Below are positions 3,101 through 63,776 of a DNA stretch of 64,000 nt, one piece after another. Source of the DNA: a virus. Its lineage: Duplodnaviria > Heunggongvirae > Uroviricota > Caudoviricetes. Below the pieces are notes generated by a model that searched no databases, was not told the origin of the DNA, and worked only from the letters and a program-made list of their open reading frames with translations. Location of the stretch: IMG/VR virus record IMGVR_UViG_2861079508_000001, one strand, 5' to 3'. Position 1 is the stretch's first letter. The number at the start of each line of letters is the position of its first letter. Position numbers and translations under genes: made by a program.

Positions 3101-4842
3101 CAGACACCGTTCAAAACAGGCGTTTCCGCTGACGACAGAGCTTTTGAAAACGTAACCTTTGTTATGTTTTCGCCAGTTTCAAGAACATCGCGCTCAACGA
3201 TTTTGCCTTCCTGATTCAATATCCGAATAAAGCTGCCGCTTTTAGCTAACGACACAGGCGCATCGAGAGTGATGCTGTTTTTGGTAAACTCCACAATTCG
3301 ACCGGAGTTACGTTTACCTGCACGATATTTGTTCTGAATCAGAACGGTTTCACCGGGCATCAGAAATGAGGCGTCTAAGCCGGCAGTAAATGTAATTACA
3401 TCCGACTCCATTCTGGCGGTATACAAAAGCCACAAACCAACTCGGTGAGCCTGGCCTCGGCTTGTACATCCAAATGCTACGACTTCTGTTTTACGCTCAC
3501 CATAACGGCGCATTGCGTCCTGATCTTCAACGTACTCGATGTTTTGCTTATAACCGTCCTCCTTGTTGTTGTAGGTTACGAGCGCAACGGATGGGCGATC
3601 TTTACGCGCAGAACCTTTATAGGTAAACAGTCCATCTTTGACGTTGGAGTTGGTAAACATCATTACTGGATCTGATGGGCTATCCTGCATGATGTTAACC
3701 ATGCCACCAGCCCAAAACACCATGCCGCGGAATGCACCGGCAATATCCTGAATTAATCGGTATGCGTCTTGTCGACTGGTGATCTGCGTATTGATTGCAA
3801 AGCGTTTCTCTTTACCCCCAAAGCCATCATCGACCTCTTCGTCACAATATCGACCAATCTGGTAGAGCTGGCCGAGGTCAATCATGGATTCCGACACAAA
3901 TTGCCCAAGACCATACCGAGTATTGGTAAGCAAATCGTAGAGAATCCACGCAGGGTTTGAAGAAGACAACAGCTTAAAAGTACCGTCCCATACGCCGACA
4001 TAAGTATTGGTGTATTCGTTGTCTCGGATTTTGATACCGCGCACCAAATACGAACGGGAAGGCATTGTGCTACCAAACTGCTCTGAATTGACCTTCAAGC
4101 CAACAAGAGCAGAGTTAGGGTAGTTCATTGGCGTGTCGACAATCTCACCTATGGAATCAACCCATGTGTCGTTGTAGAGGTACTGGCTACTGTTATCATC
4201 TGTAAGACGAATCACCCTAACCTTGTATGCACGACCAGGCTTAGGTAGTTTCAGCTCATAGCTACGGTAATACACGCCGGTTTTCTTTGCCGTTAGCGTG
4301 ATATCAACGCTTTTCTCACCTTCTGCCACTACATCAGAAAATGTTGCGTCTCCGTTGGCGATCTGGAATTTGTACTTCACCGTAGTGCCATTTGTATCGC
4401 CAGAGCTTTTATCAACGCTACGTAAAGAGGGGAATTTCATGATGACACGAACGCGATCAGCTTCATCGTTATCGATTGAAACCGTAACGTCGTGTGTTTT
4501 TTTAAGCTGAATATTTACGGACTTAGGCGTTTCGACAAAATCAAAACCAGCCATTGGCGTCTGGTCTTGTGAGCCGTCACGAAAATCCCATGTAATACCG
4601 CTGAAGTTGGAAGAGCCATCTTCATTCAAGATCGGTAAATCGTCGATGAAGATCGACTTTGCGCCATTTACCAGGCCACCGATAACCCCCTCGCCAAGAA
4701 GGTCGAGGATGGCTGCCATAGCACGAGAATTGACAGTATCATCAGCTTCAACCGGGGTACGGCTGGAGCTTTTACTTTTCTTGCCACCAGCACCGGCAAT
4801 AAGAAGCGGTAATTTTTTCTTCTTGAACTGTTCCATGTCCAA
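124..4842 (-). CDS. central tail fibre / host specificity protein (lambda gpJ-like), 1572 aa, with tandem coiled-coil repeats
   Basis: Size and position at the distal end of the tail module after I/K/L/M-like genes; about 14 tandem ~25-aa repeats (DISAAI..EQEAR..ALA.QI.QLQSKV). Confidence 0.8.
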   Translation of the reverse strand: MDMEQFKKKKLPLLIAGAGGKKSKSSSRTPVEADDTVNSRAMAAILDLLGEGVIGGLVNGAKSIFIDDLPILNEDGSSNFSGITWDFRDGSQDQTPMAGFDFVETPKSVNIQLKKTHDVTVSIDNDEADRVRVIMKFPSLRSVDKSSGDTNGTTVKYKFQIANGDATFSDVVAEGEKSVDITLTAKKTGVYYRSYELKLPKPGRAYKVRVIRLTDDNSSQYLYNDTWVDSIGEIVDTPMNYPNSALVGLKVNSEQFGSTMPSRSYLVRGIKIRDNEYTNTYVGVWDGTFKLLSSSNPAWILYDLLTNTRYGLGQFVSESMIDLGQLYQIGRYCDEEVDDGFGGKEKRFAINTQITSRQDAYRLIQDIAGAFRGMVFWAGGMVNIMQDSPSDPVMMFTNSNVKDGLFTYKGSARKDRPSVALVTYNNKEDGYKQNIEYVEDQDAMRRYGERKTEVVAFGCTSRGQAHRVGLWLLYTARMESDVITFTAGLDASFLMPGETVLIQNKYRAGKRNSGRIVEFTKNSITLDAPVSLAKSGSFIRILNQEGKIVERDVLETGENITKVTFSKALSSAETPVLNGVWTITEPDLEPMRVRIVNIAQGETSGSFDITAVENNPSKYEAIDNGATLIPQNTTVLDPTYSKPSNLQITEGTYLSSPGNLSVKLTATWEGKSPEYWISWRRSDENNVSNWQSARVTEEQYEIVNVAENGRYDFQLYAVSFNGKKTEIISTVYQVLGTMTPPDAPTSLTAVGDYRNVILNWVNPDSVDLDHINVYASQTNNLDTAKLIAESASTTFTHAGLGDSETWYYWVRASNKRGMLSPPNSNLGTEATTRDVLSFLAGKITSSELGQALLEDINSKASQEAVDELNEHINQSVESLEGSVNDVKEDIAELDKQFSDNLAGFEIKFNERSDALENAQTELKGEVSATIDKVNEAFEKIDATDAAIVEIENTVSEHDKALANTVEAIKAARDEAAALIAKESEARVEGDAANAKQLEVLQSTVEESSAAVEEMKKTVAEVDRASAELTTNIEALAKTNIDLALRQDEDQHKQMVNNAKIATTQKTFADDMSAMATKVEEIRVEIGEDIKASILEESTARADGDEALAKRVTQLQSKFEGDISAAISTEQEARTSADEALTTQITQLESKVSNDIVAAIKEEQEARATEDSALASQITQLQAKVDDDISAAIRSEQEARASGDSALAKQINQLQSKVDGDISAAITQEQEARASADQALSREINSLRAQTGTDIAAAVAVETKARTDADSALSTQISSLTAKANDLEASLARETTARADGDTALTKEVSSLKAQTAKDISAAVAVETQARTDADSALSSQITKLTSQYKEDIKAAVATETKTRTEQDAALATQITNLESQTAANISAAVTTETTARTQADNALSGRIDTLKAEVDGNTATIQQQATAIADTNKKVSTAWTLKMETSTSGGQKYVAGIALGIDTTGLSQFLVQADRFGLVNSVNGKITTPFVIENSIAYMNGAYIKDGTITNAKVGDLQSTNFVSGRSGWRFGKNGTLEINGNSGGNGRLVINGQRIDVYDDNNVLRVRIGLL
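590..1700. repeat. tandem ~75-bp in-frame repeats inside the tail fibre gene
   Basis: Periodic nucleotide and amino-acid repeat visible in the ORF translation and the DNA. Confidence 0.7.
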
Positions 4843-5444: not shown

Positions 5445-6256
5445 GTCTCATCTCCCTTGAGCAAGTCTCTGTGACGCAAGTGATGCGTCGTATGTTTCTG
5501 ATACATTCCGCCGTAATAAGCACGACAACTTAGGCGGTCGATCTGGTGATGAAGAATCATTCCATCGCCGATATAAACCGCGCAGTGGTCAGGCATTTTC
5601 CCGTATTGGATAAAGAATACGTCCCCACGTTGAGGCTCTGTTCCGGGCGCAAGACGCACCAATCCCTCGTTACGGTAGTTCTGATCGAGAATGTCGTTAT
5701 CGCCGGTGTACCACGATGGAATATGCAGGTGTGCGTTCGGGTTTAGTTCGACGTTAAACTCACGCTTCAAATAGTCCCGACACAACATCCAGCAATCAAA
5801 TACGCCAAATACATACGGTCTGCCCAGGTATGGCATTTCGAAACCATCAGGTGTGATCACATTCATCTCGCTAAAATGGAAAGGGGCATCTCCCTCAACA
5901 TTCTTGCGAATAGCCAGAATCATCCACGGAACTTCCGTCGCTTCGCAGCCTGCACGATCGGCATCAGATGCTTCTGCTGATTCATCAGTATGTGAATGCC
6001 AGATTGCGATAACATCACCCGCATCCTCTGCCGCCATAATGTCGTCAACGTGCATTACAAAAGTGTTCTGCGGGTTCTCCGAAACATTCCGCGCTTCCAT
6101 AAAGCGATATTTGTCGCCATTAGTTCTAACCAGAAAGCCACACGCTTCATTAGGGTAGCGATTTATGGCGCAGAGATAGATTTGCTGCATAACGTCAGAG
6201 CCAAGCTCAGGGATTGCTTTATTACCCATACCGCGTAGCTCCAATAAATCCGCCAA
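5432..6256 (-). CDS. tail tip assembly protein (lambda gpK-like; JAB/MPN plus NlpC/P60 motifs)
   Basis: HSHTDESAEASD metalloprotease-like motif and DCWMLCRDY NlpC/P60-like Cys motif; synteny. Confidence 0.7.
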   Translation of the reverse strand: MADLLELRGMGNKAIPELGSDVMQQIYLCAINRYPNEACGFLVRTNGDKYRFMEARNVSENPQNTFVMHVDDIMAAEDAGDVIAIWHSHTDESAEASDADRAGCEATEVPWMILAIRKNVEGDAPFHFSEMNVITPDGFEMPYLGRPYVFGVFDCWMLCRDYLKREFNVELNPNAHLHIPSWYTGDNDILDQNYRNEGLVRLAPGTEPQRGDVFFIQYGKMPDHCAVYIGDGMILHHQIDRLSCRAYYGGMYQKHTTHHLRHRDLLKGDETCLS

Positions 6257-11173: not shown

Positions 11174-11500
11174 ATGACTAAAAATACTCGTTTTTCCCCC
11201 GAAGTCCGTCAGAGGGCGATTCGTATGGTTCTGGAAAGTCAGGGCGAATATGACTCACAGTGGGCGGCAATTTGTTCCATTGCCCCAAAGATTGGCTGTA
11301 CACCGGAGACTCTGCGTGTCTGGGTACGCCAGCATGAGCGGGATACCGGAGGCGGTGATGGCGGGCTCACCACCGCTGAACGTCAGCGTCTGAAAGAGCT
11401 GGAACGTGAAAATCGTGAACTGCGCCGCAGTAACGATATCCTTCGCCAGGCTTCCGCTTATTTTGCGAAGGCGGAGTTCGACCGCCTCTGGAAAAAATGA
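11174..11500 (+). CDS. IS3-family transposase OrfA (HTH)
   Basis: 108 aa protein [26 protein letters not shown]... recognised as IS629-type OrfA. Confidence 0.9.
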
Positions 11501-12387
11501 TGCCACTGCTGGATAAGCTGCGTGAGCAGTACGGGGTCGGACCGCTATGCAGCGAACTGCATATTGCCCCGTCAACGTATTACCACTGTCAGCAACAGCG
11601 ACATCATCCGGATAAACGCAGTGCCCGTGCGCAGCGCGATGACTGGCTGAAGAAAGAGATACAGCGCGTATACGATGAAAATCATCAGGTGTACGGTGTG
11701 CGTAAAGTCTGGCGTCAGTTGTTACGGGAAGGTATCAGAGTGGCCAGATGCACTGTGGCACGTCTCATGGCGGTTATGGGACTTGCCGGTGTTCTCCGGG
11801 GTAAAAAGGTCCGTACGACCATCAGCCGGAAAGCCGTTGCCGCAGGCGACCGCGTAAACCGTCAGTTCGTGGCAGAACGACCTGACCAGCTGTGGGTGGC
11901 TGATTTTACTTACGTCAGCACATGGCGGGGCTTCGTCTATGTGGCGTTCATCATTGATGTGTTTGCCGGATACATCGTGGGGTGGCGGGTCTCATCGTCT
12001 ATGGAAACGACATTCGTGCTGGATGCTCTGGAGCAGGCGTTATGGGCCCGTCAACCGTCCGGCACAGTCCATCACAGTGATAAAGGTTCTCAGTATGTAT
12101 CGCTGGCCTACACACAGCGGCTTAAGGAAGCCGGATTACTGGCATCAACAGGAAGTACTGGTGACTCGTATGACAACGCGATGGCGGAGAGCATCAATGG
12201 CCTTTACAAAGCGGAGGTAATACACCGTAAGAGCTGGAAAAACCGGACAGAAGTGGAGCTGGCCACACTCACGTGGGTGGACTGGTATAACAATCGACGA
12301 TTGCTGGAAAGGCTGGGCCATATCCCACCGGCAGAAGCAGAAAAAGCTTATTATGCTTCCATCGGAAACGATGATCTGGCAGCCTGA
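11497..12387 (+). CDS. IS3-family transposase OrfB (DDE integrase domain)
   Basis: 296 aa, DDE-type catalytic domain, overlaps orfA stop. Confidence 0.9.
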
Positions 12388-46463: not shown

Positions 46464-47054
46464 CTATTTATTATAAACAAAACCAATATCTTTCTTGTGA
46501 GGCATATCTGCTGCTGAAAAAGCTGCGATCTTCGCGAGTCGATCACATATTTCATTTTCACGATGCCCGGCGTGACCTTTAACCCACTTCCAGCGAACAT
46601 TATGTCGACTTGCGGCCTCATCCAGACGCTTCCACAGATCAACATTCTTTACCGGTTTTTTGTCAGAAGTCATCCATCCATTGCGTTTCCACCATTTCAT
46701 CCACTGTGTCATGCCGTTTTTCAGATACTGGCTATCAGAGTGCAAAATAACGTTGCATGGATATTTCAAACGCTCCAGCCCGATAAGTGCCCCCATCATC
46801 TCCATGCGGTTATTGGTGGTGCTATGAAAACCATCTGAGAACTCGCGTTCCTCACCACGATACTGGAGAACGATACCGTAACCGCCCGGGCCACCCGGAT
46901 TTTTAAGGCAAGAGCCATCACTAAAGATTTTCACGGTTTTAAGCTGGGGATTGAACTCTACGACAGGCGTTGTGGGATTGGTGCGGGGGGAATTTTTGTT
47001 TTTGGCTTTTTTGCGAGTTTTTGCTTGCGATCGGGCTGGTGTCTTCGTCGTCAT
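46464..47054 (-). CDS. rnh: ribonuclease H (RnhA-like)
   Basis: Conserved RNase H motifs (SDGSCL, HSDSQY, KGHAGH); start at MTTKTP with AGGAG RBS. Confidence 0.8.
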
Positions 47055-47138
47055 ATAAACTCCTGAATCAAGCGCCGCGCCGATTTTTCCTCGCGCGTGC
47101 GCACACGCGTGCGTGTTAATAATTATTAAAATAAACAA

Positions 47139-47636
47139 ATTACTTCCCAGAACAGGTTTTTATAAACCTGAACTGAACGAACGAAGTGAGTGAAGTTCAC
47201 CTCGAACGAAGTGAGAGGTTGTCTTTTCAGGTAATACTCTCCCAGGGAGGTGAGTATAAAAATCTCTCACCAACCTGGTCGTTTCATAACCTGAAAAGTT
47301 ATGGTCTAAGTCTACTGCCAGCTTAGACTTGGGAAGTTATGGATGACAGCACCCCAGAACCGAGATCTTCCCACACTTTATGAAGGGGAGTACTGGATTC
47401 AACCTCTCGAAACACCCCAGACTCGACAATCATAAAGTGACCCTTGTCTCTGCTCACTTTGGTTCCCCCTTCCCCGACACCTAAACGGCACCAGTTCTAC
47501 GCTGGTAGTGAGCTTTTTTAAACCTGACGCCAGTGACGCTTACCCCCACCCATCAGGTCGAGTCTCCAGTCTACGACTGGAAACTATCAGATCTTAGCAC
47601 TTACAATTCACTTTATGAATAGTTTGTACTTATCTA
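47139..47636. repeat. ORF-free ~500-bp region rich in hairpins and short direct repeats
   Basis: No ORF of 60 aa or more on either strand; repeats CGAACGAAGTGAG x2, AAGTTATGG x2, several inverted repeats. Confidence 0.5.
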
Positions 47637-47891
47637 TCATTGTGATTGATTATTTTCTCTACCATGTAGTTGAACATTCAAGGCAAACACCTCATTGATC
47701 AACTCACCTAAAAGCTGTTCAACAAGTTCGCGATGCTCGCCAAGATGCAAGCACTTAATTGCCCATTCGTACAAGTTGAAAGCCTGCTCACGATCTTTCA
47801 TCATTTCACGAGCCTGGGCCAGAAAATCGCTCTCTACGAGCGCAACGACATTAGTCGGGTATGACATGTTGGTTTCCTTAAAGTGGTTCAT
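47637..47891 (-). CDS. hypothetical small protein
   Basis: 84 aa ORF. Confidence 0.4.
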   Translation of the reverse strand: MNHFKETNMSYPTNVVALVESDFLAQAREMMKDREQAFNLYEWAIKCLHLGEHRELVEQLLGELINEVFALNVQLHGRENNQSQ

Positions 47892-47964
47892 AAAATCGAT
47901 TTTAAAGCGTCTGGGAAGGGGTTCTAGTGGATTCTGTTGTGATGTTCAGGTCTGGAGTCTCTGA

Positions 47965-48035
47965 TACAAAACAGCCTGCTTCCGTATATTAATAATTAAT
48001 ATGTAGTTATTTATATATACAGAAGCAGGCTAATT
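47965..48035. repeat. long imperfect palindrome, copy 2 (arms AGCCTGCTTCCGTATAT / ATATATACAGAAGCAGGCT)
   Basis: Same arms as element at 23791-23889. Confidence 0.6.
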
Positions 48036-48052: not shown

Positions 48053-48646
48053 CTAAGCAGCCTTCTTTGATGGTCTTTTTTTCCTGATCACATTCGCAGG
48101 ATCATACCCTCCCAGACTTTTCATGACGTCCAAAGGGATCTTGCTTATAGAGTGCCCAGCGTCCTGACAGAATCCTCGAAAAACAACGAGCATACTGCCA
48201 CCTGGGTTGATGTTTACTTCTACCTGACCCAGATTTACGTCAGGCTCGACAAACGCTACGCGGCCACCAGACAGAATAATCGTCTCATTCGCACACTCTG
48301 TTGCACGCTCATACCACTTTGTATCTAGGGATTGAGGAATTAGCATCACTGTTGTAACTCCGCGAGCCTGCTCACGTATAGCCGCATCAATCCAGGGGTA
48401 GATTTTGGAGTAGGGTGGATTGAGGAAGGCAATTGTACCTGGCTGTCCCCATTCAGATTTCAAAGCATCACGCTCAACGCCTATGAAATTAGGCAGCTTT
48501 GCATTGTCCTTGTTGCAGGCAACGTCAACATCAAATGTCACTCCAAGATAACGTTGAATGGCAGAAAACAGCCAGTCAGGTGTTCTCCAGAGGTCACGAA
48601 GAGAGTTGTCACGCTTTCGCTGTTTGATTTTTTCGGCTGCAATCAT
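48053..48646 (-). CDS. dam: phage Dam-type N6-adenine DNA methyltransferase
   Basis: Small MTase with NPPYS catalytic motif. Confidence 0.8.
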   Translation of the reverse strand: MIAAEKIKQRKRDNSLRDLWRTPDWLFSAIQRYLGVTFDVDVACNKDNAKLPNFIGVERDALKSEWGQPGTIAFLNPPYSKIYPWIDAAIREQARGVTTVMLIPQSLDTKWYERATECANETIILSGGRVAFVEPDVNLGQVEVNINPGGSMLVVFRGFCQDAGHSISKIPLDVMKSLGGYDPANVIRKKRPSKKAA

Positions 48647-63034: not shown

Positions 63035-63679
63035 TTACAGCGCGTCAGTGGGCTTTTTACGCGCTGCGTTTATGCTTATGACGCCAGCTTTTGGACGTGG
63101 GTCAACAAGGTTAAGCTCTTCTTCGCTGTGGTATTCGAGGTCGAACTCACGTTTTACATGTCTGATGTAGATTGCGGTGAGCAGGCTATCTTTGGTCAGA
63201 AAGTGTCCGTAGGATTTGCGGATCACTTCTTCTACCTTCTCGATTTTCTCACCACCCATACAGAGATGATTAAACCGGCTGTGTTTCCGCAACATTTCGT
63301 CTACTGGGCCTGAGTAAACCTTGTCTACTTTCCCAAAACGGATGATTTTCCCTGTGTCTGCGGATACGAGGCAAATCAGCTTGTCTGGTGATAAACGATC
63401 TCGCCACGTCACACCTGAACGGAGTGTGTTGAAGTAGGGAGCATCCAATCCGATGATCGGTTTACGAAATGCGAGTAATGGAACGTACCTGATGCAACTG
63501 TTTAAATGAAAATTCACACCAGCCTTATCAAGTTTAATTCTGGTTTCGTAGATCGGGCACTTCGCCGCTATACCGCAGATGTCACAAAGCAACTTCTGCT
63601 TATTCAGGTTGGAATTTGATTCGATAGTGTAGGAGCCGTCTTCAAGACGACGAACCCAGCGCGTGCGTTTTAGATCCAT
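63035..63679 (-). CDS. hypothetical protein with Cys cluster (CDICGIAAKC)
   Basis: 214 aa ORF adjacent to candidate origin repeats. Confidence 0.45.
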   Translation of the reverse strand: MDLKRTRWVRRLEDGSYTIESNSNLNKQKLLCDICGIAAKCPIYETRIKLDKAGVNFHLNSCIRYVPLLAFRKPIIGLDAPYFNTLRSGVTWRDRLSPDKLICLVSADTGKIIRFGKVDKVYSGPVDEMLRKHSRFNHLCMGGEKIEKVEEVIRKSYGHFLTKDSLLTAIYIRHVKREFDLEYHSEEELNLVDPRPKAGVISINAARKKPTDAL

Positions 63680-63776
63680 ATGTCATTTTTCTGTGATTGT
63701 TAGCCGAGGCAACGATAACCCACCAGGTGCGCCGAAGGTAGTAAATGCCTGTTTTAATTATTCACATATCCACAGG

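Follow-up and report, generated by a model that had tools for sequence, protein, structure and literature searches.

A candidate structured non-coding RNA gene conserved in SSU5-type phage-plasmids of Enterobacterales

Large, intricately folded bacterial RNAs whose functions are little known are rare, and have repeatedly been a source of new biochemistry. The closest in kind to the element considered here are GOLLD, ROOL and OLE (Rfam; cryo-electron microscopy in PMC12286853), which are several hundred nucleotides (nt) long, contain many covariation-supported helices, are carried by prophages or mobile elements, have no coding capacity and have functions that cannot be deduced from sequence. 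Here we describe an element that shares these properties, with a conserved core at positions 47139-47562 (minus strand) of a 64,000-nt stretch of the IMG/VR virus record IMGVR_UViG_2861079508_000001 (Caudoviricetes), the whole of which we refer to as the window. We propose that it is probably an independently transcribed, minus-strand structured non-coding RNA (ncRNA). It was rejected as a member of the GOLLD, ROOL or OLE families by the lack of any covariance-model match, and it differs from them in size (about 450 nt versus roughly 580-800) and in distribution, being found only in Enterobacterales SSU5-type phage-plasmids, whereas GOLLD, ROOL and OLE occur in Firmicutes or environmental phages.

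Smaller or better understood RNAs provide further points of comparison. The c4 RNA of phages P1 and P7 and the CI RNA of P4 are likewise expressed in the lysogenic or plasmid state from a constitutive phage-plasmid promoter, and the element described here carries a motif repeated twice. The c4 and CI RNAs are, however, only ~70-80 nt long, are processed from a leader and pair with sites in the downstream mRNA, while this RNA is six times larger. An antisense immunity RNA of that type was ruled out by the lack of complementary sites: no complement of the motif UCACUNCGUUC was found in the window or the rest of the ~108-kb genome of the closely related Escherichia phage Cyrano, and k-mer complementarity between the RNA and that genome was at chance level. 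The Rfam scans, in which any such family present in Rfam would have taken part, gave no match either. RNA II of ColE1, a structured plasmid transcript of roughly 500 nt, resembles the element in its G-rich tracts and, in many members, in a nearby RNase H gene. The abundant, structured 6S and CsrB RNAs, which act in trans, are recognised by proteins and vary in level with conditions, resemble it only in the mode that we conjecture below, since it has no 6S-like rod with a central bubble, no arrays of GGA loops and no Rfam match. A retron msr-msd RNA or an ncRNA of the type associated with defence-associated reverse transcriptases was rejected because there is no reverse transcriptase in the neighbourhood; the Cyrano neighbour labelled “RNase H/Reverse Transcriptase 3” has RNase_H (PF00075) as its sole Pfam match.

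The element lies in a gap of ~580 bp between an RNase HI gene and a gene for a 76-amino-acid (76-aa) protein, and the gap is left blank in nearly all deposited records. The initial annotation had drawn attention to positions 47139-47636 as a region free of open reading frames (ORFs), rich in hairpins and short direct repeats, and had suggested a structured non-coding RNA, an origin or a packaging site. The repeats and hairpins are present as described: CGAACGAAGTGAG occurs exactly twice (47178-47190 and 47203-47215), either side of GTGAAGTTCAC, AAGTTATGG is present in two copies, each inside a 16-nt repeat (47289 and 47327), and we found 13 inverted-repeat pairs, several of them long-range. 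By our estimate, an exact 13-mer repeat within 500 nt has a chance expectation of about 0.002. Among the three suggestions, a structured ncRNA has strong support: covariation, G·U pairs that are strand-specific, signals for a promoter and for transcript ends, and expression in published data, each of which is presented below.

When the gap alone was used as a query, 686 plasmids in PLSDB matched, from Klebsiella, Escherichia, Enterobacter, Salmonella, Citrobacter, Cronobacter, Shigella, Kluyvera and Raoultella; 60 matched at an identity of at least 99%, 116 at 95-99%, 241 at 90-95%, 267 at 80-90% and two at 60-80%. The same search with the nearby exonuclease and Dam methyltransferase genes returned 706 and 719 plasmids, respectively, with 541 and 543 of these in the 60-80% band. 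The element is slower-evolving than the adjacent protein-coding genes, and it is near-universal and single-copy in SSU5-type phage-plasmids. Among 5,426 complete E. coli genomes, 231 (4%) carry it, nearly always on a plasmid and as a single copy, and the sampled RefSeq records, annotated by the Prokaryotic Genome Annotation Pipeline (PGAP), have nothing annotated beneath the match.

The comparative analysis drew on 58 non-redundant copies, found in plasmids, phages and IMG/VR contigs; among them is a divergent group of Cronobacter/Enterobacter type (L005-like, about 60-68% identity). A further lineage (L101, 79% identity) was added later through its neighbouring protein. Alignment of the copies delimits a conserved block with sharp edges, 47139-47562, which is near-invariant in elements from Escherichia, Salmonella, Enterobacter, Citrobacter, Klebsiella, Kluyvera and Cronobacter. 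The core falls within the span first noted; the functional unit with its promoter, 5′ hairpin and tail is slightly offset from that span (47125-47599), and the last ~40 nt of the latter (47600-47636) are poorly conserved spacer. A profile built from the 58 homologues has a single match site in the window (47583-47120, minus strand), and the RNA sequence groups mirror the lineages of the flanking genes. More distant homologues were sought by a pattern scan of 185,579 species genomes, which found them only in Kluyvera and Buttiauxella, together with one chance hit in a cyanobacterial metagenome-assembled genome; the family of the 76-aa neighbour protein, used as another route, proved equally narrow. 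Two of the contigs reached by that route were discarded, namely L102, a Logan contig (SRR8137545) that is a C-to-T converted copy apparently derived from bisulfite-treated reads, so that both its RNA copy and its “protein” P0026 are artefacts, and L100, an N-gap scaffold artefact.

Structure prediction, one of the checks proposed in the initial annotation, gave folding z-scores of -4.6 and -5.0 on the two strands of the window sequence, with a minimum free energy of -167 kcal/mol on the minus strand (z = -4.6). These scores, and conservation above that of the flanking genes, place the region well outside what chance would produce. RNAalifold, applied to the minus-strand alignment, predicted 99 pairs, 31 of them with compensatory double changes; 99.5% of 5,736 cells were paired, and the observed covariation was reached in none of 500 column shuffles. 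When the partners were slid by 1-3 columns as a control, only 29-49% of cells were paired and 4-5 pairs showed double changes. A lineage-balanced alignment of 12 sequences, which included the pseudoknot described below, was 95.5% paired, again exceeded all 500 shuffles, and contained 34 double-change pairs, compared with 6-10 in slid controls. The alignments support a predicted fold of about 17 helices and a long-range pseudoknot, in which helices H2, H3, H7, H10, H12, H14 and H16 are the best supported.

Reading the minus strand from its predicted 5′ end, the fold would begin with a terminal hairpin (CCAGUC-GUA-GACUGG, 47566-47580) that is conserved in position in most lineages. Hairpin H2 (ACCUGAUGGGUGGGG / CGUCACUGGCGUCAGGU, 47522-47558; strands 47558-44/47538-22) has 13 pairs with 100% of cells paired, 4-5 of which show compensatory changes, and an invariant G·U pair. 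The H3 domain (47453-47512) is closed by CUCAC/GUGAG (47512-08/47457-53), encloses H4, H5 and the G-rich strand GGGGAAGGGGGAACC, and has compensatory changes in three of its five closing pairs, with U·G intermediates on the minus strand only. A central multi-helix domain (47229-47444) comprises H6 (47444-42/47231-29), H7 (47439-30/47383-74), H8/H9, H10 (47373-67/47336-30), H11, H12 (47328-19/47314-04), H13 (47303-297/47291-85) and H14 (47278-66/47254-42); each helix is 96-100% paired, and H10, H12 and H14 have 2-6 compensatory pairs each. Hairpin H16 (UGAACU/AGUUCA, 47169-47199), in which three of the six stem pairs are compensatory, holds the second repeat copy (47178-47190) in a 19-nt loop that is conserved except in L101, where it is different. 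An alternative pairing in which H3 and H14 swap strands holds in two lineages and fails in L101, and was not adopted.

The helix formed by GAGAGGUUG (47400-47408) and CAACCUCUC (47213-47221) crosses H6 and H7 and would therefore constitute a pseudoknot. Eight of its nine pairs hold throughout the 62 sequences, and L101 shows a compensatory change from G-C to U-A. Its 3′ strand overlaps a local 4-bp stem (CCUC/GAGG, 47218-15/47203-00). The C-to-A change in L101 is compensated in the long-range partner and not in the local stem, which favours the pseudoknot in this sequence comparison. Competition of the CCUC segment for two GAGG partners is a possible conformational switch.

The first repeat copy, read as RNA CUCACUUCGUUCG (47203-47215), follows the pseudoknot strand. 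Across lineages the motif is UCACUNCGUUC, the central N being free (U, A, G or C), and the second copy differs in L101. A free central position fits recognition of a shaped element better than pairing with a fixed target. In an unrelated, unclassified IMG/VR viral contig (L031), the same hairpin loop motif, UCACUACGUUC, occurs in stems CAACCUC/GAGGUUG and CAACUC/GAGUUG at positions 6033 and 6315 on the plus strand and 13587 on the minus strand, two of the copies bracketing a GC-rich, ORF-poor stretch of ~300 nt. The same phage is represented in L022 and L058; L031 shares no proteins with the window and had no match in the phage collection.

G·U pairs distinguish the two strands. Across all pairs we counted 654 G·U cells and 3 A·C cells on the minus strand, and the 33 pairs that alternate between two Watson-Crick types have 176 G·U and one A·C cell as minus-strand intermediates. 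For 105 pairs predicted independently from both strands, the G·U ratio was 106:42 in favour of the minus strand, and the minimum free energy was lower on the minus strand in 58 of 58 sequences (mean -168 vs. -143 kcal/mol). The sole terminator-like feature on the plus strand is H3 with T6 after it, and its T-run is missing from the divergent group. Since the G·U intermediates, the folding energies and the lost T-run all point the same way, the transcript strand is assigned from sequence to the minus strand, the direction of the surrounding genes.

Upstream of the core on that strand, an extended -10 element, TGCTAAGAT (TGn followed by TAAGAT, 47591-47599), is preceded by a weak -35 sequence (TTCATA, 47614-47619). 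Of 40 distinct upstream flanks, 35 carry the pattern TGnTAnnnT at a distance of 26-29 nt from the core, amid otherwise unconserved sequence; E. coli has TGCTAAGAT here, the Salmonella/Enterobacter group has TGATAAAAT and L101 has TGTTAACAT, and inspection of the alignment revealed the same motif in the Cronobacter-like group. Klebsiella elements have TAGAAT in this place. A generic promoter and terminator scan called none of these minus-strand signals, the -10 element scoring 8/12 against a threshold of 9/12, so that their support is comparative. The predicted transcription start is near 47585/47584. The 5′ hairpin that would follow has a stability of -5 to -12 kcal/mol in most lineages, with unrelated sequences; the divergent Cronobacter-like group has a weak one (-1 to -3.5 kcal/mol). 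The U-rich tail AAUUUGUUUAUUUUAAU (47125-47141), with U at 10 of its first 16 nt in most lineages and fewer in some, is a probable termination region. Placing the ends by promoter and tail, the full-length RNA would span 47125-47585, about 460 nt. In the same flank, the promoter-upstream sequence TCACTTTATGA (47608-47618) forms an 11-nt perfect inverted repeat with the 5′ strand of H7 (47430-47440); this is probably a chance occurrence in the E. coli lineage, as the flank is unconserved elsewhere.

Expression of the region can be followed in published data, RNA sequencing being another of the checks first proposed. In a re-analysis of transcriptomes of E. coli LF82, which carries Cyrano, Misson et al. 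(PLoS Pathog 2023; PMC9928086) listed CYRAN_81, a 44-aa “hypothetical protein” annotated within the gap in the Cyrano record, as a “moron” among the lysogen-expressed genes, 12-fold above the prophage background. CYRAN_81 corresponds to window positions 47323-47457 on the minus strand (positions 3925-4059 of our sequence L001) and lies entirely within the element. In LB its expression was 117 normalised units, whereas its neighbours, the 76-aa gene (CYRAN_80) and RNase H (CYRAN_82), reached 9.5 and 8.4, respectively, and Dam 6.0 (Table 1 and Table S1 of PMC9928086), so that it stood 12-14 times above both neighbours, with the downstream RNase H gene 14-fold lower. Its log2 values in the same study were 6.9 in LB overnight, 9.2 in the B1 samples, 6.9 in B6, 8.6 in MB1 (macrophage, 1 h) and 10.3 in MB6 (macrophage, 6 h), whereas its neighbours ranged over about 3-6 across samples and 4-5 in macrophages at 6 h. 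Taken with the position of CYRAN_81 inside the element, these values indicate that transcription is confined to the element, is regulated, and takes place in the plasmid state.

No described family accounts for the element. A gathering-threshold scan of the whole window with the 4,227 covariance models of Rfam 15 returned a single match, ALIL at 11455, which lies away from the element; permissive scans, which covered positions 46900-47950 and the lineages L101 and L005, yielded no more than scattered matches, attributable to chance, in eukaryotic and viral families without relation to the element, and ARAGORN found no tRNA or tmRNA genes in the window. In Rfam and in the searchable literature on SSU5/pHCM2 phage-plasmids and on surveys of structured phage RNAs, the RNA is undescribed, with an unnamed listing in the catalogue of PMC10690425 being possible. 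The locus has the features by which a discrete bacterial ncRNA gene is generally recognised, namely a promoter, covariation, no conserved ORF and expression, with its ends taken from sequence. Our verdict is that it represents a new structured ncRNA family, of the general kind of large structured ncRNAs of mobile elements.

Several observations weigh against this interpretation, or against parts of it. Helices H1, H5, H8, H9 and H17 and the local 4-bp stem are weakly supported, one divergent group (L005-like) and L101 supply a large part of the covariation, and the diversity available is limited to about 6-8 lineages. The single-sequence z-scores do not separate the strands, and the strandedness of the libraries is unstated in PMC9928086; strand and limits both derive from sequence evidence, with the ends inferred. 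In the Klebsiella lineage the -10 context departs further from the canonical form, and the tail is poorer in U. With regard to mechanism, the trans-acting, protein-binding mode is an inference, and examination of the always-adjacent 76-aa protein did not identify a partner: AlphaFold predicts a three-helix structure (predicted local distance difference test score 79) with no significant match in the PDB and no informative fold match, and expression of its gene is low where that of the RNA is high.

The alternative that survives best, though we consider it improbable, is that the element is a cis-acting operon RNA, a stable processed spacer of a long minus-strand transcript that controls downstream genes as, for example, an HK022 put-like antiterminator, an mRNA stabiliser or a leader. 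The element does lie within a long run of genes on the same strand, a stable fold could accumulate after processing, and its U-rich tail is not a canonical terminator, with none called by the scan. Against this, the gene downstream differs between relatives, which leaves no constant target for such regulation; expression of both neighbours is 12-14 times lower; a conserved -10 element lies directly upstream; and a terminator-like hairpin (47973-48032) closes the Dam gene upstream.

Less probable is an RNA-primed replication origin, comparable to ColE1 RNA II or the R-loops of T4 oriF and oriG, at which the hybrid would be processed by the adjacent RNase H and prime lytic synthesis. The size of the RNA is near that of RNA II, it contains the G-rich tracts GGGUGGGGG and GGGGAAGGGGG, an RNase HI gene adjoins it in many members, and the element encodes a T4-like replication and recombination set. 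The origin suggested in the initial annotation nevertheless finds no support at the locus, where we found no GC-skew turning point, DnaA box, GATC cluster, iteron array or AT-rich unwinding repeat. A conserved promoter for an antisense RNA I-like transcript is also lacking, and the replicon is RepA-based, with over 15 kb between repA and the element in Cyrano. High levels of the RNA are found in the plasmid state without induction, and selection acts on its whole fold, which an R-loop primer would not need. The RNase H gene is absent or replaced beside the RNA in several lineages, and on these grounds a ColE1-type primer was rejected. The element keeps its place among relatives in which the gene on its RNase H side varies, being RNase H, DUF262, BetT or a hypothetical gene; its association with RNase H, which the initial annotation had used to place the region, is therefore coincidental.

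Slightly less probable still is a site that acts as DNA, such as a packaging or partition site, a set of iterons or a structured single-stranded DNA initiation signal, in which the hairpins would matter as DNA. Two exact 13-bp direct repeats flank a palindrome, and covariation alone would be expected of RNA and single-stranded DNA alike. The excess of G·U over A·C cells on one strand suits RNA rather than duplex DNA, the conserved span of 420 nt is not that of a short site, and transcription is well above that of the neighbours. There are just two repeat copies, the second altered in L101. The terminase and par genes are far away in Cyrano, and the locus is internal in the deposited linear phage records, which also speaks against the packaging site first suggested.

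That a small protein gene, such as the 44-aa CYRAN_81, underlies the conservation is very doubtful. It is annotated as a coding sequence in Cyrano, a “hypothetical protein” lies beneath the match in several E. coli plasmid records, and expression was credited to it in PMC9928086. The claim that the region has no ORF on either strand was only approximate, as six ORFs of 30-46 aa exist, of which CYRAN_81 is the annotated one; none of the six is both open and conserved across lineages, indels shifting their frames, so that the conserved small gene that would have overturned the ncRNA suggestion was looked for and not found. The Klebsiella, L009 and L092 groups have indels of 1-2 nt that put the CYRAN_81 frame out of register, and the L005 group lacks that frame; substitutions are compensatory in helices and not codon-periodic, and in the complete E. 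coli records that were sampled RefSeq PGAP leaves the locus blank. CYRAN_81 is most likely a mis-annotation of the RNA. The weakest alternative, that the block has no function and is conserved only through recent recombination between plasmids, draws on the mosaicism of phage-plasmids and on the variable gene slot at the left boundary, and is close to excluded by RNA sequence groups that follow the flanking-gene lineages, by divergence to 58-68% with compensatory changes and 95-99% of pairing kept, and by promoter features conserved in diverged flanks.

We therefore return to an independent structured ncRNA gene, which we regard as likely. In the plasmid state, a sigma-70 promoter of the extended -10 type (47599-47591) would drive transcription, and the RNA would start with a protective 5′ hairpin, fold, and end in a U-rich tail near 47125. 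It may then act in trans, recognised by its shape, most plausibly as a scaffold or decoy for a protein of the host or of the phage-plasmid, with the repeated UCACUNCGUUC motif and other invariant single-stranded stretches as candidate contact surfaces; base-pairing to a target mRNA would be a less likely mode. Provided that the element is an ncRNA gene, we give this trans-acting, protein-binding mode a little under an even chance, consider a role in cis or within the operon unlikely, and think a replication-primer role very unlikely. The partner is likely to be highly conserved, because across host genera the RNA varies less than the proteins that the element itself encodes.

The genetic setting of the element is as follows. 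The window can be assigned by sequence to an SSU5/pHCM2-type phage-plasmid: over a 2.3-kb stretch round the element, Escherichia phages CMS-2020a, Cyrano and PhiR41_1 share 98-99% identity with it, and Salmonella phage SSU5 and Klebsiella SSU5-like phage-plasmids share 77-79%. On the minus strand, the RNase HI gene (Pfam RNase_H) occupies 46464-47054, the 76/84-aa gene (phrog_5343) 47637-47867/47891, and the Dam-type methyltransferase gene 48053-48646; the 76-aa gene and Dam are retained on the same side of the element in all relatives compared. Between these two genes, a long inverted repeat with an AT-rich loop (AGCCTGCTTC...GAAGCAGGCT, 47973-48032) is directly followed on the minus strand by GTTTTGT and looks like the terminator of the Dam gene. 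The counterpart hairpin in L101 (2836-2955) gave spurious Rfam hits to miRNA precursors. Between the RNA 3′ tail and the start of RNase H lies a perfect 24-nt alternating pyrimidine-purine tract, CGCGCGTGCGCACACGCGTGCGTG (47092-47115), which could form Z-DNA and is kept in most lineages, some of them without RNase H; just before it on the plus strand (~47070-47089) is a GC hairpin followed by a T-run. Downstream of the RNA, a divergent Enterobacter-type lineage has a weak Tad2-like (anti-Thoeris) Pfam hit two genes away (L098, 4605-4916), and TerB-like genes are found in other lineages. Together with the DUF262 and BetT genes, these mark the region as a variable accessory-gene slot.

Elsewhere, the ALIL match (window 11455-11571, plus strand; 120 bits) is a strong one to the pseudoknot of the IS3-family programmed-frameshift element, and suggests an IS3-type insertion sequence in the phage-plasmid. 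Positions 16000-64000 of Cyrano (L103) contain the T4-like replication and recombination set, comprising UvsY, a gp32-like single-stranded DNA-binding protein, a RecA-like protein, ligase, primase, helicase and DNA polymerase III alpha, as well as three tRNAs (Asn, Thr and Ser) and a protein with an ASCH RNA-binding domain. This last protein, CYRAN_64 (roughly window 63040-63680), is a candidate RNA partner.

SSU5/pHCM2-type phage-plasmids are common in clinical Enterobacterales and also spread resistance genes. The best-conserved non-structural feature of this region of their genomes is an unannotated RNA and not a protein, and the annotation of CYRAN_81 as a “moron” protein would be corrected to that of an RNA. 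In public RNA sequencing data its expression is regulated and is highest inside macrophages, and its biological role may lie in lysogeny or plasmid maintenance, host manipulation, or defence and anti-defence. A more far-reaching and tentative possibility is that it is the founder of a new class, a large structured RNA of enteric phage-plasmids that is recognised by a highly conserved host machine or is self-assembling. If so, the host machine would be RNA polymerase, the ribosome, an RNase or a defence sensor, the competition between CCUC and its two GAGG partners would be a functional conformational switch, and the RNA would control the plasmid or lysogenic lifestyle or the physiology of the host, for instance during intracellular growth, when its level is highest. 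It is present in genetically tractable hosts, namely E. coli LF82 with Cyrano and Salmonella with SSU5.

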